Shown here piece after piece: positions 5,247 through 57,708 of a stretch of DNA of 64,000 nt. Below the pieces are notes generated by a model. The model searched no databases, was not told the origin of the DNA, and saw only the letters and a list, made by a program, of their open reading frames with translations. The translations under genes and the position numbers were made by a program. Positions within the stretch are counted from its first letter, which is position 1. The number at the start of each line of letters is the position of its first letter. The stretch is from an uncultured bacterium (lineage in GTDB: Bacteria > Actinomycetota > Coriobacteriia > Coriobacteriales > Atopobiaceae). Location of the stretch: contig CAJMPT010000001.1 of the NCBI GenBank assembly GCA_905215465.1, forward strand, positions 37,684 to 101,683. Reading direction: 5' to 3'.

Positions 5247-5500
5247 TGCACAGAAGTCCCCTTGGTGTGAGCATTTTCGGCGGCGGCGTGCAGAAGTAGC
5301 CTTCGTGTGAGCCCGTTATTTGATCCTGCCGCAATTATCAAAATATCAATGAATACCATTGGGCTGAAACAGCAGGTCGGCGAAGGTCCGGCTGCATAAA
5401 CTGCTCCGGTCCGCTCCGGAGACGCCGGAGAGGGACTCACACGAAGGCCACTTCCGCGCAAAGTTGCGCCGCAGACTCACACCAAGGCCACTTCTGCGCA
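5247..5500. repeat. Family-A composite palindromic element, copy 1
   Basis: Forward modules end at 5272 and 5312 (TGCACAGAAGTCCCCTTGGTGTGAGC, GTGCAGAAGTAGCCTTCGTGTGAGC). Reverse modules start at 5436 and 5476 (CTCACACGAAGGCCACTTCCGCGCA, CTCACACCAAGGCCACTTCTGCGCA). Both pairs have an exact 40-bp period. Confidence 0.85.
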
Positions 5501-5722
5501 GCTCCTGGACACTCATCCGCCCGACGAACGCCCCAACGGCCTGCACGTTATGCCCATGGCCTCCAAATGTCGCAATTCACCCCTCACCTGCGGCTCGCAA
5601 CCGCCGGGCGCCCTCCGGTTTCCCAAAAAGCAGCCCGCGATTGGTGGAGTGGAGTCCCCGGCTACCATAGTCTGGGAGTTGCCGGCGCACCCAAACCACC
5701 CGCAGCCCCAGGAAGGCACGTC

Positions 5723-6751: not shown

Positions 6752-6762
6752 CGACACACAAA

Positions 6763-6806
6763 TTGGGGACGTGTTCATATTTGCGCAAAAATGAACACGT
6801 CCCCAA
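6763..6806. terminator. Bidirectional hairpin between convergent genes
   Basis: Perfect 16-bp stem TTGGGGACGTGTTCAT / ATGAACACGTCCCCAA with a 12-nt loop, lying exactly between the stops at 6751 (+) and 6815 (-). Confidence 0.75.
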
Positions 6807-6814
6807 CTTGTGAG

Positions 6815-8127: not shown

Positions 8128-9816
8128 CTAATTCTCACCGGCGTAGATCTCGTAGGTGGCATAGTCCACGGAGGAGCAGCGGATCTCAAACGGCACCGAG
8201 GTGCCCTCGGCGGAGTCGTACACAAAGTCAGTCCCTCCACCGACGATGTCGCCTGAGGCATCCCTAAAGACAACGCTCACATAGATGGACGGCGATCCGT
8301 AAGCGCGACCAATGGTGCCGGCGCGCTCAAGAGCGACTTCTCCGGCAACGGAGAAGTCGCCCCTATCGTTTCTGACATTGACGCCGCTGGTAGAAACCAC
8401 GGTGGCATCGTCAGCCTTGGCTTCTTTCAAATCGAGGTCCGTGGGCTTGTCGACTGTCACATCAACAGACGCAGTATCCGCAGCCGAGCCTACGGGGCAG
8501 ATCCTGCGTTGCGTCTGTCCCGGATACAAATACGAGACGTAGTCGTTTGCGGTCGCAAGGACAGAGCCGTCTTCCGAGCGGGCCGCAAGAGTCACAAAGG
8601 CTCCGAGTATGCACAGGGAGTCGCTGGTGTTGGCAATCTCGTAAACGTCATAGACACCCAGGCCGTCCCTATACCACCCCAGGTTCTTGATCTGCAGAAT
8701 GTTCTCGCCTGAGTCGGCCGTCGTTGGGGACTTGGCAGATGAGGACGACGGCGCAGTCGCCGAGGAATCCGCCTTCGGGGTTGTCGTCGTCGAGGCAGAG
8801 CTCGAGCTCGAAGCCGACGCCGCAGCCGCATCCGCCGAGGACGCGGCCGCATCCTCGCGAATCGCCTGCAGAAGGGGCCTGCCCAGGGCCATGTAGAGCG
8901 CCATCACTGCTGTAATCAGGACCAGAACCTCGATGGCCACCAAGTACGCCCGCCCCTCTCGGCGAGAAGAGCGTCCGCCCCTGGCCTTCTTGCCAGAGCC
9001 AGCGCCCGCCAGCCCGGCAGTCGCCGCAGACACGGGAGCCTCCGTGGGCTTCTCGCCAGAAAGAGCTGCGGAGAGGTCCGCCGCGCTTTGGTATCGGCTG
9101 CTCGGCTCAAAGCTGCAGGCCCTCTGAATGATGCCCCTCATCTGCGCGGACACGTGGCTCTCGTCCGCCAGGGCCTCCTGGTAGCCATCATCGTTGGGAA
9201 CGAGGCCCGTCAGCAGGTAGCCCAGCACGCAGCCGATGGAGTACACGTCGGAGCGGGCGTCGGTCTGCTCGAAGCCGTACTGCTCGGGCGCGGCAAAACC
9301 GTAGGTGCCCAGGGCGTTGGTGTCCTTGACGGCGCCCTCCACGCGCAGGCGGGCTATGCCCAGGTCGATGAGGTGCGCCCCGTCGGCGCTCTCCACGATG
9401 TTCCTAGGAGAGATGTCTCGGTGGATGATTCCCAGCTCATGCAGGGCGCCCGCAGCCTCGCAGACTTCGCAGGCAATCCGGACGGCCTCGGCTTCCGGGA
9501 GCAAGCCATTCTCCCTGACCAGGGACTCCGCGGTCTTGCCGGGCACAAAGTCGTACACCACCACAAACTGGTCAGGCAGCTCGTAGGTTGCCTCGACGTG
9601 GGGAAGCCTCGCACAAGAGCACCGACCCAGCGCGGACCACACGTTACGGCGCGCCATGTCGGTATTGATCTTCTTGCGCACAAAGGGGCCGGCGCCCTCG
9701 ATGCTCACCAGCTCGGTGATCTCCTGGGGGCCGCGAGCAAGAACGCTCTGGACGTGGTACATGTCGTCAAGGGCCATGGCATGCATGACCTGCGCATCGT
9801 TCAAGCTCTCCCCCAT
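8128..9816 (-). CDS. Membrane Ser/Thr protein kinase with an atypical catalytic loop and an unknown extracellular domain
   Basis: Hanks-kinase motifs are present but deviant: HRDISPRN (Lys replaced by Ser), DLG for DFG, and APE present. One TM segment (YLVAIEVLVLITAVMALYMAL), an S/A-rich linker and a roughly 200-aa C-terminal domain. Confidence 0.8.
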   Translation of the reverse strand: MGESLNDAQVMHAMALDDMYHVQSVLARGPQEITELVSIEGAGPFVRKKINTDMARRNVWSALGRCSCARLPHVEATYELPDQFVVVYDFVPGKTAESLVRENGLLPEAEAVRIACEVCEAAGALHELGIIHRDISPRNIVESADGAHLIDLGIARLRVEGAVKDTNALGTYGFAAPEQYGFEQTDARSDVYSIGCVLGYLLTGLVPNDDGYQEALADESHVSAQMRGIIQRACSFEPSSRYQSAADLSAALSGEKPTEAPVSAATAGLAGAGSGKKARGGRSSRREGRAYLVAIEVLVLITAVMALYMALGRPLLQAIREDAAASSADAAAASASSSSSASTTTTPKADSSATAPSSSSAKSPTTADSGENILQIKNLGWYRDGLGVYDVYEIANTSDSLCILGAFVTLAARSEDGSVLATANDYVSYLYPGQTQRRICPVGSAADTASVDVTVDKPTDLDLKEAKADDATVVSTSGVNVRNDRGDFSVAGEVALERAGTIGRAYGSPSIYVSVVFRDASGDIVGGGTDFVYDSAEGTSVPFEIRCSSVDYATYEIYAGEN

Positions 9817-12878: not shown

Positions 12879-13131
12879 CCCAAAATACGTTTTGGGTTCG
12901 GCGTTTGAGCCGCAGTCGCAAGACCAAAACACAAAACCGCAGGCAGAGAGCTTGGCGCTTCTCGAAGAACCCGCAAACCTCTGGAAGCCCGAACCCAAAT
13001 CCATATTGGAATTGGGTTCGGGCTTCTTTCGAATTGCGCATGTTGAGAAGAGCCGCTCGCCGTCTACCTGCGCTTTTGAGCAAACGTATACTAGGGTCCG
13101 TCAAAACCGCGAACCCAAAACGTATTTTGGG
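12879..13131. repeat. Family-C MITE-like element with perfect 22-bp terminal inverted repeats
   Basis: CCCAAAATACGTTTTGGGTTCG (12879-12900) is the exact reverse complement of CGAACCCAAAACGTATTTTGGG (13110-13131). A central 35-nt near-palindrome at 12988-13022 has the same GAACCCAAA core. Confidence 0.8.
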
Positions 13132-13203: not shown

Positions 13204-14490
13204 GTGAAGCAGGCGCGTCCGTATCCCCAGGTCGTCATCAGTAGAAAGGCCGCCCGCTCGCTCAAGGCCGGCCACCCGTGGGTCTTTGAGGGCGAGATCG
13301 TGCGCACAGAGCCGGCCGCGGACGGCACGCCCGTCGCAAACGGCGGCGTAGTGGACCTCTTTGAGGAGAATGGCACCTGGCAGGGAGCCGGTCTCATCTC
13401 CCAGAACAGCAAGATCCGCGTGCGCATGGTGACGAGAAACGCAAACGACCGCATCGACGAGGCCTTCTGGGCCCGCCGCGTGGCCTGGGCCTGGCAGCAC
13501 CGCCGCGTGGCCATGGGCGGTCGCGCGCTGCCCGGCTGCGAGCCGGACACCAACTGCTGCCGCGTGCTCTTCTCCGAGGCGGACAGCATGCCCGGCCTCA
13601 TCGTGGACCGCTACGAGCACGTGCTGGTCACACAGGTGGGAACCGTGGGCATGGAGCTGCTGCGCCCCGTCATCTACCCGCTGCTTCTCAAGACGCTGCG
13701 GGAGGACGGCCAGGACGTCCGCGCCATCTACGAGCGCAACGACTCCCCGTCCCGCGCCAAGGAGGGCCTGTCCCAGTACAAGGGCTGGTGGGAGGGCCAG
13801 GGCGCCGAGGTGCCCGAGACCCCGCGCATCATGGTGGTTGAGAACGGCCTCAAGTTTGGCCTGGACATAGAGAACAGCCAGAAGACCGGCTTCTTCCTTG
13901 ATCAGAAGTACAACCGCCGCGCCGTGCGCGAGCTGGCCGGCGGCCGTCGCGTGCTGGACTGCTTCTGCCACGTGGGACCCTTCGGCCTCAACGCGGCTGC
14001 GGGCGGGGCGGAGTTCGTCCGCTGCGTGGACGTGAGCCAGACGGCCATAGACCTGGCCGCCGACAACGCCCGCCTGAACGGCCTTGAGGCAACCATGGAC
14101 TTCACCTGCGCAAACGTCCTCGAGTACCTGCCCGAGCTGGCGCGAGACCGCAAGCGCCTCCGCGAGGAGGGCGGCCCCTTCGACCTCATCGTGCTCGACC
14201 CGCCGGCCTTCACCAAGAGCCGCGGCACCGTGGAGCACGCCAGCAAGGGCTACCGCGAGATCAACTACGCGGCCATGAGGCTGCTCCCGCGTGGCGGATA
14301 CCTAGCCACGTGCAGCTGCAGCCACTTCATGACCACCGAGCTGCTCAAGCGCGCCATCGCCGACGCCGCCCACCAGGCAAACGTGCAGCTCAAGCAGATC
14401 GAGGAGCGCCAGCAGGCGCCGGACCACCCCATCCTCTGGGGCGCGCCTGAGACCCACTACCTGGACTTCCTCACCTTCCAGGTGGTCTAG
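13204..14490 (+). CDS. rlmI: SAM-dependent rRNA (cytosine-C5) methyltransferase, RlmI/COG1092 type
   Basis: PUA-like N-terminus (KAGHPWVFEGEI) and methyltransferase motifs VLDCFCHVGPFG and LDPPAFTKS. GTG 13204 lies 7 nt after GAAGGAGAG. The upstream 104 codons of the ORF cross the repeat element. Confidence 0.8.
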   Translation: MKQARPYPQVVISRKAARSLKAGHPWVFEGEIVRTEPAADGTPVANGGVVDLFEENGTWQGAGLISQNSKIRVRMVTRNANDRIDEAFWARRVAWAWQHRRVAMGGRALPGCEPDTNCCRVLFSEADSMPGLIVDRYEHVLVTQVGTVGMELLRPVIYPLLLKTLREDGQDVRAIYERNDSPSRAKEGLSQYKGWWEGQGAEVPETPRIMVVENGLKFGLDIENSQKTGFFLDQKYNRRAVRELAGGRRVLDCFCHVGPFGLNAAAGGAEFVRCVDVSQTAIDLAADNARLNGLEATMDFTCANVLEYLPELARDRKRLREEGGPFDLIVLDPPAFTKSRGTVEHASKGYREINYAAMRLLPRGGYLATCSCSHFMTTELLKRAIADAAHQANVQLKQIEERQQAPDHPILWGAPETHYLDFLTFQVV

Positions 14491-14501
14491 CTTTCCCTCG
14501 G

Positions 14502-14663
14502 GGGGCGGCCGCCGGCTCCATCGGCGCCGACAGCACCTGGCTCGTAGCCGCAAACTCCCTGGGCACCAGCGCTGGCAAGATGCTGAGCCCGCAGAACATC
14601 GCCATCGGCTGCGCCATCGCCATGGCCGTCCTGGTCCTTGTGGGCTCCATCGCCCTGGGGTAG
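14502..14663 (+). pseudogene. C-terminal fragment of an L-lactate/glycolate permease (LctP family) gene
   Basis: Manual translation gives ...GSIGADSTWLVAANSLGTSAGKMLSPQNIAIGCAIAMAVLVLVGSIALG*. The AANS.G...GKM(I/L)SPQ(S/N)IA block is the LctP signature. There is no upstream body, since the frame starts right after the rlmI stop. Confidence 0.5.
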
Positions 14664-14681
14664 GAGCCGCGGCAAGAGGCA

Positions 14682-14833
14682 CTTCTCGCCTGGCGGGGCT
14701 GCGGGTTCCTTGCTGTGAACGTCTGGCACGTCAGTTCAGCCGTTCAGTGAATGTCTGTCTTCAATTCAGGCGTTCACTGAACGGCTGTTTTGCTATCTAA
14801 GGCGTTCACGGCAAGAGGAACCGCGGCGAGAAG
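14682..14833. repeat. Family-B palindromic element, copy 1 (inverted relative to copies 2 and 3), with outer CTTCTCGCC/GGCGAGAAG arms
   Basis: The core at 14715-14809 is GTGAACG...CGTTCAGTGAA...CGTTCACTGAACG...CGTTCAC. The outer arms GCACTTCTCGCC...GGTTCCT and AGGAACC..GGCGAGAAGTGC are mutually complementary. Confidence 0.85.
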
Positions 14834-26882: not shown

Positions 26883-27068
26883 GCGCGAATGCGCGACCTC
26901 CTTGGTCGGGTTTCCTATACGCGCCCGCGGTCGGGACGCGTGGGACCGCAGGCGTAAATATTCATTCTAGCAGCCATCCGCGCATCCCTCGTTTCTGCCG
27001 CGTTGCGCGATCGGACAGGCGCTGGGGGGCGGAAGGCCCGGGCAAGACGACTCCGGGCGCGGCGGCCC

Positions 27069-27290
27069 TGCGCAGAAGTCCCCTTCGTGTGAGCCTTCCG
27101 CCATTTTTTGTGCAGAAGTCCTCTTCGTGTGAGTCCTTTTTGGGCTTAGCCAGAGTATGCCCGATTTGCCAACTGGGCTTTTGCTGATTCGCAAAGGCGA
27201 AATCAGCCGCAAGGCCCCAATTTGGGCTCACACGAAGGGGACTTCTGCACAGACTTTTGGAAAATGCTCACACGAAGGTCAGTTCTGCAC
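27069..27290. repeat. Family-A composite palindromic element, copy 2
   Basis: Forward modules end at 27094 and 27134; reverse modules start at 27227 and 27267 (40-bp period in both pairs). The last module contains the stop codon of CDS 27279-28259. Confidence 0.85.
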
Positions 27291-28259
27291 GCCGAAGAGC
27301 CTCTCGCGCAGCTTGTCGCGGGAGTCCTGCTGCCACTTGGTCAGCGGTCGGCGCCTCAGCCCCAGCCGGCACGTCAGGTCATCGACGAAGGCATCGAGCT
27401 TGGTGCCGTCCTTGACCAGCTCGTTTGTTGCCACCATCACGGTGTAGCCCATTGCCTCGAGCACGCGACGGCGAGCCTCGTCGGACTCCTTCTTCTTGGG
27501 TGTCAGGTGATGCGCGTTGCTGTCGTACTCCACCACCAGCCTGGCGTCGGCCCACAGGAAGTCCGGCTTGACCTCGGACTGGCCGTCGAGCGCCTCCCGA
27601 TGCCTCTGGGGCACCTCGAGGCTCGCGTTCACGGCAAACCCGCCCAGGCCTGCCCCACCGAGCCTTCGCGAGAGCAGGAAGAACACGGCAAGGTCGGTCT
27701 CGCGCGGAGAGGCGGACCCATCGGTTGCCAGGTCAAGCGCCCTCACGGCCTTACCCGCGCCGCGCACGCCCACGGCCCTGGCGGACTTTGCGTACCCCAC
27801 AAGCTCGGCCCTGCTGGTCAGCGCCGTGAGGTCTGACTGGAAGCTGTCCTCCGCCCAGGGCGTGAGGCCATACGTGCCACACAACTCGCAGGCAATCTGG
27901 GCAAGGTCGACCTCGTCCATGTCCATTGCCAGCTGCACCAGCATGGGCCCCGGCTGGCACACGCTCACGTACTGGTCGACAACATGCAGGTGAGACTGGG
28001 TGAGCGGGCCGGCAAAGACGCGATCGCGAATGGCCTGACACCGCCGCCGGTCTGCGACCGAGCCCACCACGGCATCGACCGGCACGCTCGAGTTGCAGAG
28101 GTTGGCCGCAAGGGCCGCCCGCTCGTGAAGCTCGAGCGCCCGCGGCCCAAAGACCCTACCCGCATCCTCAAGCACGTGCTGCCCCTCGGAGGCAACCCGA
28201 GAGGCCCTCCAGAAGTCCAGAGCCGTTTCATATCCCATGACAAGCGCTTCGTTGCCCAA
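27279..28259 (-). CDS. DUF559/Vsr-like endonuclease-fold protein, paralogue 1
   Basis: C-terminal signature KPDFLWADARLVVEYDSNAHH...ESDEARRRVLEAMGYTVMV. The N-terminus (ETALDFWRA) aligns with paralogue 2 (RSALDYWRA). TTG 28259 has GGGAGGGGG 6 nt upstream (ATG 28238 is an alternative). Confidence 0.7.
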   Translation of the reverse strand: MGNEALVMGYETALDFWRASRVASEGQHVLEDAGRVFGPRALELHERAALAANLCNSSVPVDAVVGSVADRRRCQAIRDRVFAGPLTQSHLHVVDQYVSVCQPGPMLVQLAMDMDEVDLAQIACELCGTYGLTPWAEDSFQSDLTALTSRAELVGYAKSARAVGVRGAGKAVRALDLATDGSASPRETDLAVFFLLSRRLGGAGLGGFAVNASLEVPQRHREALDGQSEVKPDFLWADARLVVEYDSNAHHLTPKKKESDEARRRVLEAMGYTVMVATNELVKDGTKLDAFVDDLTCRLGLRRRPLTKWQQDSRDKLRERLFGVQN

Positions 28260-33701: not shown

Positions 33702-33957
33702 CTGCACCGAACCCGCCTTAGTGTGAGTCTTTAGGAAACCGCTGCACCAAAGTGGCCTTAGTGCGAGCCCCTCTTTTGGGCATCGCCTTCCTCGTCAATG
33801 ATTCTATGCAATATCAAATCCACTCAACTGGACTTTCTAGTGGAAATTATTCATTTAATGATTGATATCACAGCTATGGCTGATGATTAGACTCGCACTA
33901 AGGCCACTTCAGCGCATCCGATTCAGAATCACTCACACCAGGGTGCTTTCGGTGCAG
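33702..33957. repeat. Family-A composite palindromic element, copy 3 (diverged), at the left edge of the low-G+C island
   Basis: Forward modules end at 33728 and 33768 (CTGCACCGAACCCGCCTTAGTGTGAGT, CTGCACCAAAGTGGCCTTAGTGCGAGC). Reverse modules start at 33892 and 33932. Again an exact 40-bp period. Confidence 0.75.
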
Positions 33958-46532: not shown

Positions 46533-48086
46533 CTAGTTCTCCTTCTCTTCAAGGTTGAGGACGTCTTCGAGGTTCATCTTGGACTCGGCGCTCACCGGGT
46601 TCAGGTTGTTGGGCTCGTAGCCGGGGAGGAACTTCTCCTCGTAGAACGTGCGCGGGATGGCGACGGGGTACTCGCCGTTGAAGCAGGCCTTGCAGTAGCC
46701 CACCCCCTCGGGCACGCAGGCCATGAGGCCCTCCAGCGAGAGGAAGCCCACGGAGTCCGCGCCAATGTGGTCGCGGATCTCCTCCAGCGTCATGTTTGCG
46801 GCGATGAGCTGGTCCTGGTCAGCCGTGTCGATGCCGTAGAAGCACGGCCAAGTGACCATGGGGCTGGCGCTGCGCACGTGGACCTCCGTGGCGCCGGCCT
46901 CCTTGAGCAGGCGCACGATCTGCGCGGACGTGGTGCCGCGAACGATGGAGTCGTCCACCATGACCAAGCGCTTGCCGCGCACGACGTCTGCCAGCGCGTT
47001 GAGCTTGAGGCGCACGCCCATCTCGCGCAGCTCCTGCGTGGGGGCAATGAAGGTGCGGGCCACGTAGCGGTTCTTGATGAGGCCCGTGCCGTAGGGAATG
47101 CCGGACTCCTCCGCAAATCCCTCGGCCGCCGGCGTGCCGGAGTCGGGCACGGAGATGACCAGGTCGGCGTCGACGGGAGTCTCCTGCGCAAGGCGGCGGC
47201 CCATGTTGTGACGCACCAGGTAGATGGAGCTGCCGTCCTTGACGGAGTCAGGACGCGAGAAGTACACGTGCTCAAAGATGCAGTTGGCCGGAGTGCGCGG
47301 GCGGCAGCCCATCTCGGAGCGGAAGCCGTCGTCGGAGATGCGGATGATCTCACCGGGGGCAACCTCACGCACGTAGGTGGCGCCGGCGATGTCCAGCGCG
47401 CACGTCTCGCTGGCCACGACCCAGCCGGCGCCGTCGTCCAGCTTGCCCAGGACCAGCGGGCGGATGCCATGCGGGTCGCGGAAGGCATAGAGGGCGTTCT
47501 CGCGCACCAGGACCATGGCGTAGCCGCCCTCGAGCATGCGCATCGTGTGCGCGATGCCCGTACGCAGGCGGTGCCCGCGCTGGGTGAAGTAGCCGATGAG
47601 CTTGGCGGCAACCTCGGAGTCGGTGTTTGACCTGAAGGGGATGCCCATCTCGATGAGCTCGTGGCGCAGGGAGTCAAAGTTGACCAGCGTGCCGTTGTGG
47701 GCCAGGGCAATGATCACGTCGTTGATCATGGAAAGGTGCGGCTGCGCGGACTCCCAGCCCTTGGCGCCCGCCGTGCCGTAGCGGCAGTGGCCGCAGGCCA
47801 CCTTGCCAGGCATGGCGGAGAGGTCCGCGTCGGTGAAGACCTGCGTAACCAGGCCCAGGTCCTTGCGGACGAGGACGGTCTTGCCGTCGCCCACGGCGAT
47901 GCCGGCGGAGTCCTGGCCGCGGTGCTGCAGGGCCCGCAGGCCAAAGTAGGTGATGCGGGCCACGTCACGACCGGGCGCCCAGACGCCAAAGACGCCGCAC
48001 TCCTCATGGAGCTTGTCGTCGGGCTCGGGAGCGTCCTGGGCGGCCGAGGCCGACGGGCGGACGTACTTCTCGACGTTGCTTGTCAC
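46533..48086 (-). CDS. purF: Amidophosphoribosyltransferase
   Basis: Propeptide then the Ntn nucleophile CGVFGV, a PRTase motif (VMVDDSIVRGTT) and a C-terminal Cys cluster. Confidence 0.95.
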   Translation of the reverse strand: MTSNVEKYVRPSASAAQDAPEPDDKLHEECGVFGVWAPGRDVARITYFGLRALQHRGQDSAGIAVGDGKTVLVRKDLGLVTQVFTDADLSAMPGKVACGHCRYGTAGAKGWESAQPHLSMINDVIIALAHNGTLVNFDSLRHELIEMGIPFRSNTDSEVAAKLIGYFTQRGHRLRTGIAHTMRMLEGGYAMVLVRENALYAFRDPHGIRPLVLGKLDDGAGWVVASETCALDIAGATYVREVAPGEIIRISDDGFRSEMGCRPRTPANCIFEHVYFSRPDSVKDGSSIYLVRHNMGRRLAQETPVDADLVISVPDSGTPAAEGFAEESGIPYGTGLIKNRYVARTFIAPTQELREMGVRLKLNALADVVRGKRLVMVDDSIVRGTTSAQIVRLLKEAGATEVHVRSASPMVTWPCFYGIDTADQDQLIAANMTLEEIRDHIGADSVGFLSLEGLMACVPEGVGYCKACFNGEYPVAIPRTFYEEKFLPGYEPNNLNPVSAESKMNLEDVLNLEEKEN

Positions 48087-48109
48087 GAAGCTCGTTCCTC
48101 TCTTGGGGG

Positions 48110-49156
48110 CTAGTTGGACGTTGCGGCGGCGTCCGCGGCGGCGGAGGCCTTGGGCACGCAGACCAGGATGGTGCGGCCCGTCTCGTTGTTGGTGTAGTTG
48201 CAGGTGCAGAGCGTGAGAACCTTGTCCGCGCCGGCTATGAGCGCGTCGGCGTCGGAGCGCTTGGCCACGGCCTTGCCCAGAAGGCCCGCCAGGTAGGTGT
48301 GGAACTCGTCGTCGGAGGCAAAGGAGAACTGGCGGACGTTGGCGTCGTTCTCGTCCGTCTTGTAGAGCATGAGGGGCTCAAGCTCGTAGTTTGCGTCCTC
48401 CGTGACGTACCAGACGGTGTCCACGGAGTCAAAGTACTCCTGGTTCTCCATGTCAGCGATGGGCTTGAACATGGCGCCGTTGCGCAGGTGGTGGCCGTAG
48501 ATGATGGACTGGGCGTCCTGCATGCCCGGCGCGGTGTTCTCTGCGTCAAGGAAGATCTGGCCGCCCAGCGAGTAGCTGCCCTCCGCGTTGGTGTGGAGGT
48601 ACTCGTCGTTGTCCGCGCCCTGGTAGACGGGGAAGTTGACCACCGTGTTGGGAATCTGGACCCAGCCGACCACATCCTGGTTGACCGCTTTGAGGGACGC
48701 CCAGTCAACCACGGGCGCCTCGCTGCCCTTGGGGTCGATGGTGGCGTACGCGGCGAGCTTCTCGTTGATCTGGTCCTGCTCGTGGTACTGCCACTGGTTG
48801 TAGCCCCACATGCCGCCCGCCACCAGGATGAGGATGACGCCCAGCGCAAAAAGGATGCCAGAGATGATGCGGTTGCGACGACGCTTGGGGTTGTTCTCGC
48901 GCCGGCCAGAGAGGTCGTACGGATCCGTTCGCCTTCCGTGGCGAGAAGAACCCGCGTCGGCGCTGGTCGAGGTCACCGGCACAAAGCCCTGGGCTGCGCG
49001 CCCGGCGTTGGCGGCTGCGTGGGGGTTTCCAGCCGGAGCGTGGTAGGACTCGTCTCCGCCGCGATGCGCAGGCGTGCTCACCGGCGTGTGGGCGCCGGCC
49101 GCGGCGTCCCGACCGCGGCGGGGCTTCTCCTCGGGCTCCCTGAAGTGGGACGCCAT
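48110..49156 (-). CDS. srtB: Class B sortase with a long disordered cytoplasmic N-terminus
   Basis: TM anchor, then VVGWVQIPNT, IIYGHH and the catalytic LTLCTC (TLxTC) motif. Confidence 0.8.
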   Translation of the reverse strand: MASHFREPEEKPRRGRDAAAGAHTPVSTPAHRGGDESYHAPAGNPHAAANAGRAAQGFVPVTSTSADAGSSRHGRRTDPYDLSGRRENNPKRRRNRIISGILFALGVILILVAGGMWGYNQWQYHEQDQINEKLAAYATIDPKGSEAPVVDWASLKAVNQDVVGWVQIPNTVVNFPVYQGADNDEYLHTNAEGSYSLGGQIFLDAENTAPGMQDAQSIIYGHHLRNGAMFKPIADMENQEYFDSVDTVWYVTEDANYELEPLMLYKTDENDANVRQFSFASDDEFHTYLAGLLGKAVAKRSDADALIAGADKVLTLCTCNYTNNETGRTILVCVPKASAAADAAATSN

Positions 49157-49159
49157 GGG

Positions 49160-49621
49160 CTAGGCCTCGGCCATCTGCTGCTTGAAGTCCGCCATCTTCT
49201 GGCGGTACTCGGGCAGCGTGGCGCCCAGGATCTGGGTGGCGTAGATGGCCGCGTTCTTTGCGCCGTTGATGGCCACGCAGGCCACCGGGACGCCGGAGGG
49301 CATCTGGACCATGGAGAGCAGGGAGTCAAGGCCGCCCAGGTCAGAGGTCTTCATGGGCACGCCGATGATGGGCAGCGGAGTGCAGGCGGCAACGACGCCG
49401 CCCAGGTGGGCAGCCTTGCCGGCCGCGGCGATGATGACCTTCAGGCCGCGGTCCGCAGCGGTGGAGGCCCACTCGTGGACCTTCGCGGGATTGCGGTGGG
49501 CGCTGGCAATGACCAGCTCGTACGGCACGCCCAGCTCCTCGAGCTGCTTGGTGCACGCCTCCATGGTGGGCATGTCGGACTTGGAACCCATGATGATGCC
49601 AACCAGCGGCTGGTCTGCCAT
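49160..49621 (-). CDS. purE: N5-carboxyaminoimidazole ribonucleotide mutase
   Basis: VGIIMGSKSD, SAHR and the AAHLGGVVAA loop. ATG 49621. Confidence 0.9.
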   Translation of the reverse strand: MADQPLVGIIMGSKSDMPTMEACTKQLEELGVPYELVIASAHRNPAKVHEWASTAADRGLKVIIAAAGKAAHLGGVVAACTPLPIIGVPMKTSDLGGLDSLLSMVQMPSGVPVACVAINGAKNAAIYATQILGATLPEYRQKMADFKQQMAEA

Positions 49622-49832
49622 AAGACGCTCCTCCCGTTTGCGCGACGCTTTTGCGTGACGCGCGTTTATCGCCATTCGGTTTTCAGTATACGCGAGGCAA
49701 GGCTTCCGGCCAGACGGCTTGGGAACTCGTCACAGTACCGTTAACCTCGTCTTTTGTCTGCTACGCTGACCTTTTGTTAGTGAGTAGGGGCCGACGAGAG
49801 GCTCTTCTCGACCAGCATCCGGACTTCTTCCC

Positions 49833-49903
49833 TTGCCCGTGAACGCCTGAGGTAGCAAAACAGGCGTTCAGTGAATCCCTGAATTGCAGACCCAGGCGTT
49901 CAC
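49833..49903. repeat. Family-B element, copy 2 (short form)
   Basis: TTGCCCGTGAACGCCTGAGGTAGCAAAACAGGCGTTCAGTGAATCCCTGAATTGCAGACCCAGGCGTTCAC. Same orientation as copy 3. Its last half-site contains the stop codon of CDS 49900-50919. Confidence 0.85.
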
Positions 49904-50919
49904 GCCACATCGGAATAGGCCTCCTCCGGCGGCTCGTCCCCGTCAAACTCGCTCGTCGAGAAGAGCTTGACGTGCAGGGCCCTTCTCGCCTTCAGCTGCT
50001 CGGGCGACGGGGCCTGCCTGCGCACGTTCAGGCGATTCGCGATCATGAGGCCAACGGCGCTCAGCTCCTTGAGGCTCCGCGCCCGCTCGTTGTTGAGAGA
50101 GAAGGTCGTCAGCCCCTCGGCGGCCAACGCGTCCATGCGCCGGTCATCGTTGGTCCAGGTCTTCTCCGGATGGAAGCGACGGCTCTTGTACTCCCCGGCA
50201 ATTCCGGCGGCGGGCAGATAGAAGTCCGGGCGCATGTGCCCGTAGCCCAAGATGCTCCGCGCAACGGGGCCCAGCTCAAGCGTGCGATTGAGCTCGATTC
50301 CCCTGATGCCCAAGCCGCCGTCCGAGCGGCCGAGCGACAGGAACGAATAGACCTTTGATTCTGCGGGAGAGTTTGACCCGTCTTGGGCAAGACCGAGGAC
50401 GTCTCTCAGGCGGCGCGCAGCCACGGGAAGATCAGGGCTTCTTACCTCTAGCCAGGCGGAAAGCTCACCCACCGTTGCCAAGCTCTTCTTGGTGTTGACG
50501 AAGCCGGCCTCCAACGGCGGGGCCATCAAATACGTCCCGCAGAACTCAAGCGTGGCAATCAGCGCGTCTACCAGCGTCTCCCTGGCTGCAACCTGGGCAA
50601 GCGCAAGGGGAGGCCGGCACACGCCGAGATCGGGAAGGACCCACTCGACGTCCCCGCCAACGCCGACGTCTGCCCACACAAAGCAGGTGGCAAGCCTCGA
50701 GTTTCTCCTGTCGGAATCTTGCGGCGCGGCCAAGGCCATCGGAACGGGAATGCGCAGGTCAGCCGCAAGTTCGCTGAGACGGGCATACGTCACGTCACGG
50801 GCGCGGGGCGGCCTCAGCCGAGCCTGCGTCAGATGGCCATCAGCAACCTGCGGCGCGCCAGCCTCCGCCCTCCAGTAGTCAAGTGCCGAGCGTCCGCCCA
50901 AGATGATCTTTTGCGCCAT
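49900..50919 (-). CDS. DUF559/Vsr-like endonuclease-fold protein, paralogue 2
   Basis: C-terminal signature MRPDFYLPAAGIAGEYKSRRFH...NDDRRMDALAAEGLTTFSL. GGGAGGG RBS before ATG 50919. Confidence 0.7.
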   Translation of the reverse strand: MAQKIILGGRSALDYWRAEAGAPQVADGHLTQARLRPPRARDVTYARLSELAADLRIPVPMALAAPQDSDRRNSRLATCFVWADVGVGGDVEWVLPDLGVCRPPLALAQVAARETLVDALIATLEFCGTYLMAPPLEAGFVNTKKSLATVGELSAWLEVRSPDLPVAARRLRDVLGLAQDGSNSPAESKVYSFLSLGRSDGGLGIRGIELNRTLELGPVARSILGYGHMRPDFYLPAAGIAGEYKSRRFHPEKTWTNDDRRMDALAAEGLTTFSLNNERARSLKELSAVGLMIANRLNVRRQAPSPEQLKARRALHVKLFSTSEFDGDEPPEEAYSDVA

Positions 50920-50960
50920 GTGCCCTCCCTAGTCCAGCCGCTAAGGCCGCCAAGGATGAC

Positions 50961-51011
50961 ACATGCAACTTGCAGCAAGCTTTCCCTACGCATACCGCAA
51001 ACTTGCAGCAA
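50961..51011 (-). promoter_or_regulatory. Duplicated GCAACTTGCAGCAA box upstream of paralogue 2
   Basis: ACATGCAACTTGCAGCA (50961-50977) and GCAAACTTGCAGCAA (50997-51011). The core GCAACTTGC is an odd palindrome. Confidence 0.4.
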
Positions 51012-51107
51012 ATCGCATCTTCCGATGAAGACGCGCTTACCGCTGGCTGTAGTTGCACGATCTATGTCAAAAACGGCATAGGGAGTCCACAATTCGGGCC
51101 TGTGGCC

Positions 51108-51205
51108 CTTCTCGCCGGCGGTGGGGCTTCTCGCTGCGAGGGCTTCTTGCCGCCGACCGGGCTTCTCGCCCTCCGCACTTCTCGCCGCCGACCGGGCTTC
51201 TCGCC
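51108..51205. repeat. Tandem array of the CTTCTCGCC 9-mer with alternating 19/16-bp spacing (35-bp period)
   Basis: Units start at 51108, 51127 (CTTCTCGCT), 51143 (CTTCTTGCC), 51162, 51178 and 51197. Confidence 0.85.
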
Positions 51206-51207
51206 GA

Positions 51208-51306
51208 GCCCGTGAACGCCTGGCATAGCAAAACAGCCGTTCAGTGAACGACTGAATTGAAAACAGGCATTCACTGAACGGCTGAATTGAAGCCCCAGGC
51301 GTTCAC
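51208..51306. repeat. Family-B element, copy 3 (long form)
   Basis: CCCGTGAACGCCTGGCATAGCAAAACAGCCGTTCAGTGAACGACTGAATTGAAAACAGGCATTCACTGAACGGCTGAATTGAAGCCCCAGGCGTTCAC. Near-identical to the reverse complement of copy 1. Confidence 0.85.
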
Positions 51307-51359
51307 GGCGCGGACGCCGAGAAGCCCCTCCCGGCGAGAAGCCGCCGCCGGCAGCCCTC

Positions 51360-53033
51360 CTACAGGCAGAACCCCATCAGGATGGCGTGCTCGGTGGCAG
51401 GCAGGTGGGAGTACCAGGGCTCGCCAGCCTCGCTCACGCAGAGGTAGTACTGGGTGTTGAGCGGATCGATGGAGCGCAGCCACCAGTAGGAGTCGGAGCC
51501 CTGGGTGCCCAGGATGGAGTAGGTGCCGCCCCACTGGACGTCCTCGTCGAAGAAGAGCTGGTATTGGTCGCCCTCGGGCACATAGGAGTCGGAGCGCTTC
51601 ATGCCCGCAGTCAGCTTGCCCACCACCTCGGAGAACGAGGGAATCCACAGCTTGTCGTCAACGGAAGAGGCGGACGTGGCCCCAAAGCCCACCGTCTTCT
51701 TGGAGACCTCGACCACCTTGGAGGAGACCTCGTCGGGAAGCTCCGCCAGCAGGTCGTCGTTCATCCACGTGCGCAGCTCGCTGCCCTCCCAACCGGAATA
51801 GGTGCCCGCCTGAGAGACGTGCCGGCTGGCCACGGCATCCTCGGAGATCATGGTGACGCCAGCCTTGCCGGAGCCGTCGGCCCGCTCGTCCTGGCGGAAG
51901 CCCACGATGCGCATGGTCACCGTCTTGCCGTTGCTGAGCTGCAGCTTCTTGGTCTGGCTGCCGTCAAGCTTGCCGGACTCCAAGCACAGGTTGTGCTTCT
52001 TGGCAATCTCCAGCGCGACGGAATCGCTGTCCGCGGCGGCAATCTGGGCAGAGAGCTCGGAGAGCTCATCCCAGCTGTAGTCCTCGACGGCCGACCTCAC
52101 GGGGACGGAGTCCTGCGCGTCGCTGCCAGAGTCGGTAGGGTCGGAGCCGGCCTCGCCAGAGCCTCCCTTGGGCTCGCTCTGCGCCGGGGCGTCTGAGGGC
52201 CCCTGGGCCGGACGGTTCATGGCACCCACGGCCACCACGCCAACGATGGCAATGACCACCAGGGCCGCAATGGCCGCAATCGCGCGGCGAGAAGCCCCCG
52301 TCTTGCCGGCGGCGGCACCGCCAGAGCCCTGCGTTACAGGCACCCTGAGCTGCGTCGTTGCATCCAGGTCGGCCGGAGCACCGGCCGGCTCTGCGGCGGC
52401 ACCGGGCCCAGGCGTCTTCTCCGCGGCCAGGCGCTCGGCCTCCTCAGCGGCGGCGCGCTCGGCAGCCGCAGCCGCACGCTCGGCCTCACGGCGCTCGCGC
52501 TCCTCCCGCTTGGCCTGCGCGCGGCGCTCCTTGGCCTCCTTGCGGCGGCGCTGCTCCTCCTCGCGCTCGCGGCGGCGAGCGTCGCGGACGCCCACCTCGC
52601 AGGACGCAATCCCAGAGGCAGCGTTGGCCGCGGGGTACTTCTCCCAGGTCTTCTGGTCCGCGGCAAGCTCGGCCTCGTCCTCGCGCTGCTCGCGCGGAAG
52701 CTTGGGGTCAGGTGCGGGCGGAATCTGCTCGGCAAGGTCAGGCAGAGACGCGGCGCGCTTGGGCTTGCTCGTCCCCGGTTGCGCGGGCGAGAAGCCCGGG
52801 CGCGGCTCGTAGGGCCTCGGCGCCCTCATGGAGCGAGGCATCGCGCGCGGCGCGGGAGCCATGGGCACAAAGGGGACGGCACCGGCCGAGAGCGGCTGCT
52901 CAAGCGGCTTGGGGGCGGGAATGGCCTCCCCGTCCACCGAACGCGGCTCCGCGCCAGAGCCCACCGGCGCGCCGCACTTCTCGCAGAAGCGTGCCTCGTC
53001 AGAGATCTCCGCACCACAGCTGTTGCACTTCAA
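51360..53033 (-). CDS. Zinc-ribbon membrane protein with a DUF6273-like extracellular domain
   Basis: MKCNSCGAEISDEARFCEKCGAPV zinc ribbon, a highly charged R/E/A helix, one TM segment (AIAALVVIAIVGVVAV) and a C-terminal domain with GSELRTWMNDD...YWWLRS. Confidence 0.75.
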   Translation of the reverse strand: MKCNSCGAEISDEARFCEKCGAPVGSGAEPRSVDGEAIPAPKPLEQPLSAGAVPFVPMAPAPRAMPRSMRAPRPYEPRPGFSPAQPGTSKPKRAASLPDLAEQIPPAPDPKLPREQREDEAELAADQKTWEKYPAANAASGIASCEVGVRDARRREREEEQRRRKEAKERRAQAKREERERREAERAAAAAERAAAEEAERLAAEKTPGPGAAAEPAGAPADLDATTQLRVPVTQGSGGAAAGKTGASRRAIAAIAALVVIAIVGVVAVGAMNRPAQGPSDAPAQSEPKGGSGEAGSDPTDSGSDAQDSVPVRSAVEDYSWDELSELSAQIAAADSDSVALEIAKKHNLCLESGKLDGSQTKKLQLSNGKTVTMRIVGFRQDERADGSGKAGVTMISEDAVASRHVSQAGTYSGWEGSELRTWMNDDLLAELPDEVSSKVVEVSKKTVGFGATSASSVDDKLWIPSFSEVVGKLTAGMKRSDSYVPEGDQYQLFFDEDVQWGGTYSILGTQGSDSYWWLRSIDPLNTQYYLCVSEAGEPWYSHLPATEHAILMGFCL

Positions 53034-53232
53034 GGCGCTCCTCCCGTCTCCTCCCGTGCCAATTGCTCCCCATCATACTTGAAACTCCTCGCCGGTGACA
53101 CGGCCTCGCACGGCGGCGCGCGCCTGCGGCCTCGCCCCGGCTATCCACCCCCCCGGCACACAAAGAAGGACGCGAGGCAAGAAGCCCCGCGCCCTCCGCG
53201 TCTGCAATATCGGCCGTGCCCGCCTCCCGGCC

Positions 53233-54033
53233 CTACTTGCCCGTCAGAATCTGGACCGGCGTGAAGGACGTCGTGATCTGGTCGCGAATCTCGTCCTGGA
53301 TGGCGTCGTTGATGCCCGTGATGGTGCAGCCAAAGTTGACGCCGCCGTTGGCGGACTGCGTCTTGGTCCACACGAAGGTCATGTAGGACGTAACGTCGCC
53401 CGTAGGCTTGAGGAAGCCGAAGAGGCGCGTGCGCTCGATCTCGCCATCAGCGCTCATGTGGACGTTGACGTGGTAGACCACGGTGTTGATCTTGGGGTTG
53501 AGCAGGGCGTTGACGGCAAAGGCCGTGGCCTGCACCTGGGAGCCGGCAAAGCACTCGAGGGCCTTCTCGGAGCTGGTGTCCGTGACGGTGACCTCGATGC
53601 GGCCCGTGTTCTCGTCAGCCTCCTGAACGGAGAAGTCCTCAGGGAACTGCGTGAAGCCGTTGCCCCACTCCACGCCGCCGCGCAGGGCGGAGGCCACGGT
53701 GCGGACGTTGGCGTTCTCGGAGAGGTTTGCCGTGTTGGCGCGGCGGATGACGCCAAAGCCAACCTGGAAGACCACGATGCCCACCAGGAACACCAGCACA
53801 AAGCCCACGGCCGTACGGGCGATGACCTTCTCGACGTTGGAGCCGGACGGGTCGTCGCCGGCCAGGGGATCAACGTCGACGGACGTGCCCTTCTCCTTGC
53901 GGTGGCGGCGCTCGCGGCGGGCGCGCTCCTCGTCAGTGTGGCCCGTCTCGTCAACCTTCGCAAAGAGCGCCTCGGCCTCGTCGGCGTTGAGGGCGCCCCT
54001 CTGGATGCGTGCTATTTCATACTTTTTGGCCAT
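53233..54033 (-). CDS. Hypothetical single-pass membrane protein
   Basis: MAKKYEIARIQ..., a basic/acidic cytoplasmic head, a TM segment (VGFVLVFLVGIVVFQV) and a roughly 190-aa external domain. No family recognised. Confidence 0.6.
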   Translation of the reverse strand: MAKKYEIARIQRGALNADEAEALFAKVDETGHTDEERARRERRHRKEKGTSVDVDPLAGDDPSGSNVEKVIARTAVGFVLVFLVGIVVFQVGFGVIRRANTANLSENANVRTVASALRGGVEWGNGFTQFPEDFSVQEADENTGRIEVTVTDTSSEKALECFAGSQVQATAFAVNALLNPKINTVVYHVNVHMSADGEIERTRLFGFLKPTGDVTSYMTFVWTKTQSANGGVNFGCTITGINDAIQDEIRDQITTSFTPVQILTGK

Positions 54034-54132
54034 GTGCTCTCTCCCCGTCAGGCGCCAGGAGGCGCGGCGGGACCGCCCTTGCCTGTGGCGGCCCTCAACG
54101 GACATGCTGCAAGTATACGCAAGCGAGGCCGG

Positions 54133-55899
54133 CTAGCGGGCCTCGGCGTCCCCCTCCGCGAACTGCATACGGTAATAGCGCGCGTACGTCCCGTTCTTGG
54201 CGAGAAGCTCCTCGTGCGTGCCGCGCTCCGAGACCTGGCCCATCTCCATGGTCACGATCTCGTCGGCGTTCTTGATGGTGGAGAGGCGGTGCGCGATGAC
54301 CAGCGTCGTCCTGCCCTGCGCAAGCTCGGATAAAGACGCCTGCACCGCACGCTCGGACTCGTTGTCCAGGGCAGAGGTGGCCTCGTCAAAGATCAGGATC
54401 GGCGGGTTCTTGAGGAAGACGCGCGCGATGGCGATGCGCTGCTTCTGACCGCCGGAGAGACGGGCGCCGCGCTCGCCCACGCGGGTCTCGTAGCCGTCGG
54501 GCAGCCCCTCGATGAAGTCGGCGATGTTGGCCCTCCTGGCCGCGTCGCGGATCTCCTGGGCACTGGCGTCCGGCCGTCCGTAGGCAATGTTCTCGGCAAT
54601 GGTGCCGTCAAACAGGTAGACGTCCTGCTGCACCAGGCCAATGCTCTGACGCAGGCTCTTCTGCGTGACGTCGCGCACGTCCTGGCCGTCGATGGTGATT
54701 GAGCCCTCGCGCACGTCGTAGAAGCGCGGCAGCAGGCTGCAGGTGGTGGACTTGCCACCACCCGAGGGGCCCACCAGAGCGATGGTCTCGCCAGGGCGAA
54801 TGTCCAGGTCAAGCCCACGGATGACGTCTCCCTCGCCACCGGCGTAGGCAAAGCGCACGCCCTGGTAGCAGATGGCGCCCTCGCTCACGGCAAGGTCTAA
54901 CGCACCCGGCTTGTCCTCGATGTCGGGGCGGGTGTCCAGCACGTCACAGAAACGGCGGAAGCCGGCAATGGCCTTCTGGAAGGTCTCGGTGAAGTTGAGG
55001 ATGTTGGTGATGGGCGTGGTGAACATGCTGATGTAGAGGGCGTAGGTGGCCAGGTCGACGGCCTCCATCTGCCCCTTTGCAATCAGCCAGCCGCCCATGA
55101 CCAGGATGACCGTGTTGAGGCCACCCATCATGGCCGAGATCGCGGCCTGGTACTGGCCCATGGCCCGGTACATGCGCGTCTTGGAGTCAAGGTAGGCATC
55201 GTTGGAGTCGCGGAACTTGCGGCGCTCCAGGTCCTCGGCGGCAAAGCTCTTGACCACGCGGGAGCCGGCCAGGGAGTCTTCCAGGCGCGAGTTCACGCCG
55301 GAGATCTTGATGCGGTTCTCGGCAAAGACGGCCTTCATGCGCAGGTTGGCCCAGGCGTTGTAGGCAATGAGCACGGCGCAGATGACGGCCAGCACCAGCG
55401 TGAGCGTGGCATTGATGGAGCCTAGGATCACAAAGGAGCCCACGATCTCCACCACGCCGATGATGAGGAACTCAGGGCCGTGGTGGGCCGTCTCGGCAAT
55501 GTCAAAGAGGTCCGAGACCAGACGGCTCATGAGGTCGCCCGACTTGTTGCGGTCAAAGAACGAGAAGCTCATGCGCTCGTAGGCGTCAAAGAGGTCCTCG
55601 CGCATGCGGCTCTCCATGCGGGCGCCCATGACGTGGCCCCAGAAGCACACAAAGTAGCGGCAGCCAAAGCGCACCAGGTACATGAGTGCCAGGCCAATGG
55701 CCAGGTAGACAAGGGCGTCCATGATGGCGTCAGCGCCCTCGCCAAAGATGCCGCGGGTGCAGGTGCGAAGAATCTGCGGGAAGGCCAGGTCAATACCGGC
55801 CACGGCCAGCGAGCAGACGATGTCTGCCACAAACAGGCCCACCTGGCCCTTGTAGTACGAGAGGAACTTCCCCATGAGCTGGCAAGAGGTGCGTTGCAT
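54133..55899 (-). CDS. ABC exporter, fused permease/ATPase (MsbA/MdlB-like)
   Basis: Six-TM domain, Walker A GPSGGGKST, signature LSGGQKQRIAIAR and Walker B ILIFDEATSALD. AAGGAG lies 4 nt before ATG 55899. Confidence 0.9.
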   Translation of the reverse strand: MQRTSCQLMGKFLSYYKGQVGLFVADIVCSLAVAGIDLAFPQILRTCTRGIFGEGADAIMDALVYLAIGLALMYLVRFGCRYFVCFWGHVMGARMESRMREDLFDAYERMSFSFFDRNKSGDLMSRLVSDLFDIAETAHHGPEFLIIGVVEIVGSFVILGSINATLTLVLAVICAVLIAYNAWANLRMKAVFAENRIKISGVNSRLEDSLAGSRVVKSFAAEDLERRKFRDSNDAYLDSKTRMYRAMGQYQAAISAMMGGLNTVILVMGGWLIAKGQMEAVDLATYALYISMFTTPITNILNFTETFQKAIAGFRRFCDVLDTRPDIEDKPGALDLAVSEGAICYQGVRFAYAGGEGDVIRGLDLDIRPGETIALVGPSGGGKSTTCSLLPRFYDVREGSITIDGQDVRDVTQKSLRQSIGLVQQDVYLFDGTIAENIAYGRPDASAQEIRDAARRANIADFIEGLPDGYETRVGERGARLSGGQKQRIAIARVFLKNPPILIFDEATSALDNESERAVQASLSELAQGRTTLVIAHRLSTIKNADEIVTMEMGQVSERGTHEELLAKNGTYARYYRMQFAEGDAEAR

Positions 55900-57662: not shown

Positions 57663-57708
57663 GGCGCCCGGCGAGAAGAACACACTTCTCGCCGGGCGCC
57701 CTTTTGTT
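57663..57708 (+). terminator. Intrinsic terminator built from an inverted GGCGAGAAG pair
   Basis: Perfect 16-bp stem GGCGCCCGGCGAGAAG / CTTCTCGCCGGGCGCC, a 6-nt loop, then CTTTTGTTTG. Confidence 0.85.

Follow-up and report, generated by a model that had tools for sequence, protein, structure and literature searches.

In the 64-kb stretch of DNA analysed here (the window, at its full length; 65% G+C), a gene for a protein with a Vsr/DUF559-type nuclease fold lies between two copies of a palindromic element that we call family B. We consider it an even chance that positions 49833-51308 form one module, in which the nuclease gene is accompanied by its own cognate palindromic elements in a partnership like that of repetitive extragenic palindromic (REP) sequences and RAYT transposases, with a mechanism that we infer. 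About 70-125 bp long, the element consists of G-N-GAA-S half-sites arranged as a hairpin doublet, and it also occurs solo elsewhere in the chromosome; the gene is apparently inherited vertically, as a single and fast-evolving copy. A lasting and specific link between one clade of these genes (clade I, the relatives with at least 38% identity) and the palindromes flanking them is the only reading that fits four facts, namely the universal bracketing of the gene, the recurrence of this bracketing at different loci, the change of the repeats with the protein, and the presence of solo copies with lineage-specific sequence. The window matches a 192-kb contig from a gut metagenome (ERZ925229 k127_39912). 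Homologues are named in the databases as Paratractidigestivibacter, Thermophilibacter and Olsenella (Atopobiaceae, Coriobacteriia); the exact window protein was found on eight contigs, in the same locus at the three places displayed.

The REP/REPIN-RAYT system is the textbook case of a chromosomal enzyme partnered over the long term with its own short repeats. If the module described here is what it appears to be, then this lifestyle has evolved more than once, and functional study of the hypothetical DUF559-like proteins, a very large family with about 6000 clusters at 50% identity, would have its first point of entry. The module would also provide a compact protein-DNA recognition pair, whose half-sites change by single bases from branch to branch of the protein tree.

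Family-B elements and the bracketed gene

The module lies on the minus strand. Its upstream (5') element, a full-length copy at 51208-51308 that forms a REPIN-like hairpin doublet, is separated by 54 bp from the stop codon of the DUF6273 gene upstream and by 289 bp from the start codon of the nuclease-like gene (49900-50919), which encodes a two-domain protein of 339 amino acids. The downstream (3') element at 49833-49904 is a shortened copy with one inner arm missing; a full-length copy occupies its position in another strain (open reading frame [ORF] P0311, found in a peptide search for ORFs running across elements). The leader and promoter region inside the module (50920-51104) carries a duplicated AACTTGCAGCAA box (50967-50978 and 51000-51011), and no match to the sigma-70 consensus was found in it. 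Between this region and the upstream element lies an array of CTTCTCGCC with a 35-bp period and no defined strand (51105-51205). A first-pass annotation of the window had pointed to both the box and the array, and both are present; the array, for its part, is incidental, being specific to the window's strain and missing from the homologous loci L018 and L019. It probably lies outside the module, as it is made of GGCGAGAAG, of which CTTCTCGCC is the reverse complement and which is a separate motif over-represented throughout the window. Boxes of the CTGCAAG/CTTGCAG type recur in the 190-300-bp leaders (50967-51011 in the window, and in L016, L018 and L021) and may be a conserved promoter or operator.

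A search of the full window with a covariance model of family B, built from eight copies and used without filters, yields exactly three copies at E<=1e-10, the number given by the first-pass annotation, and two of them bracket the gene. The matches span 51205-51315 (121 bits) and 49832-49912 (59 bits, E 2.6e-13), both best on the minus strand, and 14706-14816 (113 bits), best on the plus strand. Both bracketing copies thus score best on the gene's strand, which agrees with the direct orientation that had been claimed for them; the elements are near-palindromic, and one strand scores only modestly better than the other. The core pattern of the element matches five times in the window where shuffled sequences lead one to expect none, and the perfect TGAACG palindrome reported earlier is found as CGTTCAGTGAACG at 51238-51250. 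The best match below the threshold (E 0.035) is a perfect hairpin at 6757-6812, between convergent genes, with 28-bp arms that are 93% complementary; it holds CGTGTTCA...TGAACACG half-sites reminiscent of family B.

The elements in the window fold as long imperfect hairpins of -24 to -40 kcal/mol with z scores of -7 to -11, and z ranges from -4 to -11 when all folded elements are considered. The downstream element forms a 77-nt hairpin (-24.1 kcal/mol, z -7.1), the upstream element reaches -39.5 kcal/mol (z -11.3), and the hairpin of the solo copy at 14702-14816 has a z of -8.6; across 110 nt this solo copy is 85% complementary to 51210-51319. In the outer stem CGTGAACGCCTG is paired with CAGGCGTTCACG, the inner stem consists of two CAGNCGTTCASTGAACGNCTG arms, and three of the 34 pairs of the consensus hairpin show compensatory changes. 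A terminator-like sub-hairpin, followed by a T-run, lies inside the upstream element on the strand of the gene. No Rfam family matched the element, the only matches being to microRNA hairpins and below threshold. A scan of reference genomes with the core pattern, in a set that excludes the species of the window, returned ten single matches in unrelated phyla, as many as chance predicts. We see no target-site duplications in the 15-nt flanks of the seven family-B copies inspected.

The downstream element contains the TGA stop codon of the gene (49900-49902). The coding strand reads GAT GTG GCG TGA ACG, and in this the earlier description of a stop codon inside a half-site is correct. The idea that the element supplies the stop as a designed feature was rejected in that exact form, because the stop codons of L018 and L019 lie upstream of the element, with about 24 extra bp in between. 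The arrangement found in the window, specific to its allele and incidental, looks like the result of a deletion between GYGTGA direct repeats. The ORFs of three other lineages (L094, L098 and L106) likewise run into the downstream element and, as in the window, end inside it; the tail of the L098 protein, VRKASEL, is encoded by GTT CGG AAG GCT TCC GAA CTC, which is the element itself.

We compared the DNA around the loci of homologues. In clade I, lineage-specific palindromic elements are found on both sides of the gene in all nine lineages in which both flanks are visible, at no fewer than two unrelated chromosomal loci, and the core half-site is GTGAAC, GTGAAG, GGAAG or GAGAAG depending on the lineage. 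The GTGAAC type comprises the closest relatives. In L014, L018 and L019 (76% identity) elements like those of family B lie on both sides; in L018 and L019 the gene has the DUF6273 gene on one side and purE on the other, and the L014 contig does not reach far enough to be placed. L015 (65%) is bracketed, has the purE side in common with the window and carries a pilin locus upstream. L016 (59%), again between the DUF6273 gene and purE, is bracketed by a GTTCACA-N4-TGTGAAC variant together with CGTTCTGAGAATG. More divergent lineages have other elements and in part other neighbours. L020 and L102 (45%), located at a GGDEF gene, have a 117-nt direct repeat built on GTGAAG-N-CTTCAC, and L021 and L108 (38-40%) have three or four GTGAAGCCTTCAC sites per side, of the GTGAAG-S-CTTCAC type to which L020 also belongs. 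At the asd locus, L094, L095 and L110 as well as L098-L101 (38-40%) carry an element of about 125 bp with GTTCGGAAGSCTTCCGAAC, of the GTTCGGAAG-S-CTTCCGAAC type and in direct orientation on both sides. The assemblies of L094, L100 and L110 are GCA_963627815.1, GCA_964512475.1 and GCA_963660155.1. L106 (42%) has GAGAAGWCTTCTC doublets on both sides (GAGAAG-W-CTTCTC type). L103 (46%) shows a GGAAGSCTTCC array upstream only, on a contig that stops 147 bp past the stop codon of the gene.

In a neighbour-joining tree the bracketed lineages form one clade, inside which the GTGAAC type is monophyletic, and the repeat type tracks the protein tree at its main split. The layout is constant, with elements about 190-300 bp upstream of the start codon, beyond the leader, and also where the ORF finishes, either at its 3' end or within it. 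Several contigs (L013, L014, L096, L097, L105 and L107) start or end inside the flanking repeats, which means that the repeats break or loop metagenome assemblies. The 1381-bp contig L014 starts and ends with an identical 28 nt; this does not show a circular molecule.

As a control, the same flank-to-flank BLAST was applied to 137 ORFs of at least 200 amino acids from the window and 24 representative loci. Repeats common to both flanks were found for seven of the 137, six of which belong to this gene family, so that only one of the 112 control genes is bracketed (Fisher p = 1.3e-4 over the family as a whole, and 9e-13 within clade I). The association of gene and repeat for which the first-pass annotation had proposed a test is therefore borne out by nine of nine clade-I lineages against one of 112 control ORFs. 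A scan for recurrent exact palindromes found arrays of xGAAGNCTTCx confined to clade-I loci, where they stand beside the gene or as solos.

Solo elements carry the lineage's own sequence in three lineages. The solo copy of the window (14702-14816, plus strand) lies between convergent gene ends, in the orientation opposite to the bracketing copies; that of L098 (16186-16270) lies between thrB and a sulfatase gene, and that of L102 is at 9408-9502. Neither a nuclease gene nor a remnant of one was found near the solo elements.

The comparison of the window with L018 reveals how differently the parts of the locus have evolved. The upstream element is 92% identical, the leader (50920-51104) about 80% and the gene 78%, whereas synonymous sites differ at 48%; the element has therefore been kept well above the neutral expectation. 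The downstream purE-purF region is 96-100% identical and the upstream flank about 89%, and the gene is the most divergent segment (67-87% identity along its length). Aligning 47500-55800 of the window with L018 places the jump to 98% identity at the downstream element, and this break suggests a recombination junction at the module. Synteny at purE is kept down to 59% protein identity, and the asd locus is the same in several assemblies.

The nuclease-like protein

Residues 181-320 of the window protein form a Vsr/DUF559-like PD-(D/E)xK nuclease domain (E187, D232, E243-Y-K245). Residues 1-180 form an alpha/beta domain with an invariant LEFCGTY motif and no match to a known domain; it had been estimated at about 220 amino acids, and is actually about 180 long. 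No sequence match to the window protein was found in Pfam, NCBIfam or PDB. A word-indexed search returned 24 homologues and an exhaustive profile search 6076 clusters at 50% identity, 2285 of them with E<=1e-30. Among the best 150 clusters listed, nearly all are full-length (about 320-340 amino acids), and the few that have been named are hypothetical proteins. Relatives of the protein were not found on viral contigs.

In an alignment of 19 family members, D232 (in RPDF) and E243 are invariant and E187 (in SNSPAES) is nearly so, being present in at least 90% of the members. K245 of the EYK motif is present in all clade-I members and is replaced by D in P0024 and in the paralogue encoded in the window; D at this position is the classical DUF559 state. 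That paralogue (27279-28259, minus strand, 326 amino acids) is 30% identical to the window protein, falls outside clade I, and is the sole other copy of the family that tblastn finds in the window. Pfam recognizes DUF559 in two of the 19 members (best E 2.7e-7) and MTES_1575 in three (best E 3.5e-6), all of them distant; further relatives score below the threshold for these families (PF04480, PF18741).

The AlphaFold (AF2) model of the window protein has a pLDDT of 87.5 and a pTM of 0.87. Searched with Foldseek against the viral protein models of BFVD, it finds Vsr, DUF559 and homing endonucleases with probabilities of 0.95-1.0 and E-values of 1e-3 to 1e-2. Matches in PDB are weak, with every E-value above 0.01, and include I-Bth0305I (3r3p, TMt 0.56), AbaSI and PvuRts1I. 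Large mitoribosomal subunits also appear among the PDB neighbours, and we take these to be matches to RAP-type proteins. Both RAP and DUF559 are counted among the restriction-endonuclease-like folds and considered related (10.1101/2023.06.05.543710; PMC3424549). The N-terminal domain modelled alone reached a pLDDT of 62.6, too poor for a fold search. Given the conserved and intact E/D/ExK motif, the DUF559 and MTES_1575 matches of distant relatives and the Foldseek neighbours of the model, the assignment of the C-terminal domain to the Vsr-like PD-(D/E)xK fold holds as a prediction, and on this point we agree with the first-pass annotation.

The gene has a dN/dS of 0.16-0.21 and is under purifying selection. 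A truncated allele of 271 amino acids is found in L109-L111 (Paratractidigestivibacter assemblies), at the usual asd locus; the intact allele, as in L094, encodes 347. We considered whether truncated cluster members represent a second locus and rejected this, as P0184 (271 amino acids, the only one looked up) lies at the same asd locus.

A proposed partnership with cognate repeats, and rival explanations

The module shares much with REP/REPIN-RAYT systems. Palindromic repeats of its own stand on both sides of a gene that seems to be single-copy and vertically inherited. Solo copies of these repeats, seen in three lineages, are extragenic hairpin doublets, for the most part at the 3' ends of genes. 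The repeat is lineage-specific, changes with the enzyme and is not accompanied by target-site duplications. The parallel had been drawn from the arrangement seen in the window, and the apparently single-copy, syntenic gene and the hairpin doublets bear it out. The enzyme, however, is a Vsr/DUF559-like PD-(D/E)xK protein with an unplaced N-terminal domain and not an HUH Y1 transposase, and no HUH Y1 (IS200-like) transposase domain was found in the window protein. Also unlike REP/REPIN-RAYT, the aligned copies inspected have no GTAG or CGTC tag, their ends being CGTGAACGCCTG and CAGGCGTTCACG; the flanking copies share the orientation of the gene; copy number looks low, at about one per 50 kb; and the host belongs to the Coriobacteriia. 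As to rates, for which we have this gene's side of the comparison, the gene diverges faster than the genes that flank it. Because the enzyme is not the one that defines the REP/RAYT family and the sequence tags are absent, the module is not a member of that family, but in its anatomy it works like one.

With the DUF559/Vsr/MTES_1575 group, which includes the Vsr-like homing endonuclease I-Bth0305I, the protein shares the helix-E, PDF and E-x-K/D motifs of its C-terminal part, the Pfam matches of its distant members and its structural neighbours. It differs from the group in falling below all Pfam and NCBIfam thresholds, in its conserved 180-residue N-terminal domain without a match, and in the absence of a partner cytosine methyltransferase or an intron context at the window gene. 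To our knowledge, no member of this group has cognate repeats. A full-text search of the literature returned no paper that ties DUF559-type proteins to repeats, and the RAYT literature that it returned concerns HUH enzymes only; the earlier statement that there is no described equivalent is in line with this.

Other systems offer partial parallels. Elements of the insertion sequence (IS) family IS200/IS605 and cassettes bracketed by miniature inverted-repeat transposable elements (MITEs) likewise end in hairpin-forming structures, lack terminal inverted repeats and target duplications and carry an ORF that ends in or at the end structure, and the distant homologues L027 and L085 are bracketed by true MITEs. 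Unlike in these elements, multiple identical gene copies are lacking here, the enzyme belongs to a different class, and each flank is a complete element of the same plan as the solos, not half of one. A classical IS or MITE was rejected, given the absence of target-site duplications and the single, divergent paralogue found by tblastn of the window. Integron attC sites are also imperfect palindromes, 60-120 bp long; they fold as single strands and are found at the 3' end of an ORF or overlapping it, whereas here a single gene has elements on either side, and solos stand between ordinary genes. The attC core sites have the consensus RYYYAAC/GTTRRRY. The element ends GTGAACG/CGTTCAC do not fit this consensus and no integrase is among the genes called within +/-10 kb, and attC sites were rejected. 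Rex boxes read GTGAA-N4-TTCAC and CRP boxes TGTGA-N6-TCACA; by consensus, operators of these two types were provisionally rejected, the palindromes here being one base shorter (GTGAA-N3-TTCAC).

If gene and elements form a module, the protein would recognize the GNGAAS palindromes, either as dimer sites in duplex DNA or as extruded hairpins or cruciforms, and might nick or cut them. Nicking or cutting would maintain the elements and occasionally copy them to new sites, mostly 3' ends of genes and terminator hairpins, a role parallel to that of RAYT transposases for REP/REPIN sequences and played by an unrelated enzyme. Of the copies, those that bracket the gene would be the cis-proximal or master ones, and they probably double as transcription terminators or insulators for the gene. 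A bolder version of this reading, in which clade I represents a second and independently evolved class of repeat-propagating enzymes, with a PD-(D/E)xK nuclease copying its own REPIN-like elements around Atopobiaceae chromosomes, is one that we hold tentatively and consider rather doubtful. The MITEs around two distant homologues, L027 and L085, suggest that a partnership with repeats may be more general across the wider family of about 6000 clusters.

Several observations weigh against a nuclease with cognate repeats. Only about one solo per 50 kb is found in the roughly 150 kb of sequence examined, the solos are old (that of the window is 85% identical to a bracketing copy), and no recent transposition event was observed in the loci compared. 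The window protein falls below every Pfam threshold. Some strains have the truncated 271-residue allele of the clade-I gene, which shows that the gene is dispensable and that natural knock-outs exist. Within a sub-clade the bracketing is inherited through synteny, and the lineages are not fully independent. Most of the distant members of the family (about 30% identity, at over 60 human-gut loci) lack bracketing repeats, and the repeats around the two exceptions, L027 and L085, are ordinary MITEs, 200-260 bp long. Finally, all three copies in the window lie at gene 3' ends with the hairpin and T-run in matching orientation, which would also fit a purely structural role. Such a role, as a terminator, is possible, yet it cannot be the whole story; the T-run is absent from the elements of other lineages.

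One could instead assume that the palindromes are operator or insulator sites that were never mobilized, that is, dimer-binding sites used by the protein, or by a partner, to autoregulate and insulate its own, potentially toxic gene. The upstream sites would then be operators, the downstream sites a terminator or roadblock, and the solos further binding sites or members of a regulon, with the nuclease activity serving another purpose. The elements outside the sub-clade of the window, which are operator-like arrays of perfect palindromes of 11-23 bp, are consistent with this assumption, as are the base-by-base change of the half-site along the protein tree, the conserved position about 190-300 bp upstream and the terminator-like sub-hairpin. 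Nevertheless, it is unusual for operators to lie where these sites do, past the promoter region on one side and on the other at the 3' end of the ORF or within it, the solos lie between convergent gene ends and not at promoters, and the catalytic residues have been kept. Moreover, whole elements of 100-125 bp, including their spacers, are duplicated on both sides and as solos, which looks like the copying of DNA and not like convergent evolution of sites. We consider operators without mobilization unlikely.

Quite improbable, in our judgement, is a selfish mobile cassette, in which element, gene and element would constitute an IS-like or homing unit with the PD-(D/E)xK protein as its transposase or homing nuclease, the palindromes as its ends, and the solos as scars of recombination between the direct flanking copies. 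The ORFs that run into the downstream element (in the window, L094, L098 and L106), as transposase genes run into a right end, are in keeping with such a unit, and so are the promoter inside it, the occurrence of the clade at different loci (purE, asd and others), the homing endonucleases among the structural neighbours, and a gene far more divergent than its flanks with the identity break at the downstream element. However, no genome sampled contains a second close copy, the only paralogue being that in the window with 30% identity; the gene keeps its locus in relatives with as little as 59% protein identity, and the alleles of several assemblies, the truncated one included, are found at one locus. 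Target-site duplications, relatives on viral contigs and nuclease remnants near the solos are all missing. About as improbable is the absence of any functional link, with ordinary REP-like or terminator repeats that were spread by other means and pile up around a dispensable, recombination-prone gene. The location of all three window copies at gene 3' ends, the hairpin and T-run of the upstream copy, the other repeat families in the window (family A and hairpins), the paralogue that abuts an unrelated repeat, and the MITEs around L027 and L085 would be explained in this way. But chance accumulation sits poorly with bracketing on both sides in nine of nine clade-I lineages and at two or more loci against one of 112 control genes, and with a repeat sequence that follows the protein lineage; nor does it account for an element conserved far above the neutral expectation or for elements without a T-run in other lineages.

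Other repeats in the window

No other 9-mer is as frequent in the window as the motif GGCGAGAAG, which is present 38 times, counting both strands, where shuffled sequences give 1.3. It occurs in intergenic hairpin pairs and within genes, often near their 3' ends; examples are located at 57670-57693, at 14682-14690 together with 14825-14833, and in the array at 51105-51205. Within genes it is read 12 times in frame as Gly-Glu-Lys and six times antisense as Leu-Leu-Ala. The close relatives of the window (L015, L016, L018 and L019) have 6-10 copies per 10 kb, L098, L094 and L020 have fewer, and the distant genomes sampled have 0-1.7 per 10 kb. In these respects GGCGAGAAG resembles an uptake-signal or Chi-like sequence. 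Its core, GAGAAG, is also the half-site of the L106 palindrome.

Repeats of a second family, A, are found at 5247-5501, 27068-27290 and 33702-33957. They are MITE-like and about 220-250 bp long; one end carries a pair of direct GCAGAAGTCCCCTTCGTGTGAGC-like units and the opposite end a pair of inverted ones. The copy at 27068-27290 is unrelated to family B, and the stop codon of the paralogous gene sits in its terminal unit. Just upstream of the solo family-B element, a short ORF tail at 14490-14664 looks by eye like the C-terminus of a permease (...SPQNIAIGCAIAMAVLVLVGSIALG) and may be a gene fragment left by a deletion. An inverted repeat of 28 nt (12879-12906 and 13104-13131), 93% complementary, encloses about 200 bp.

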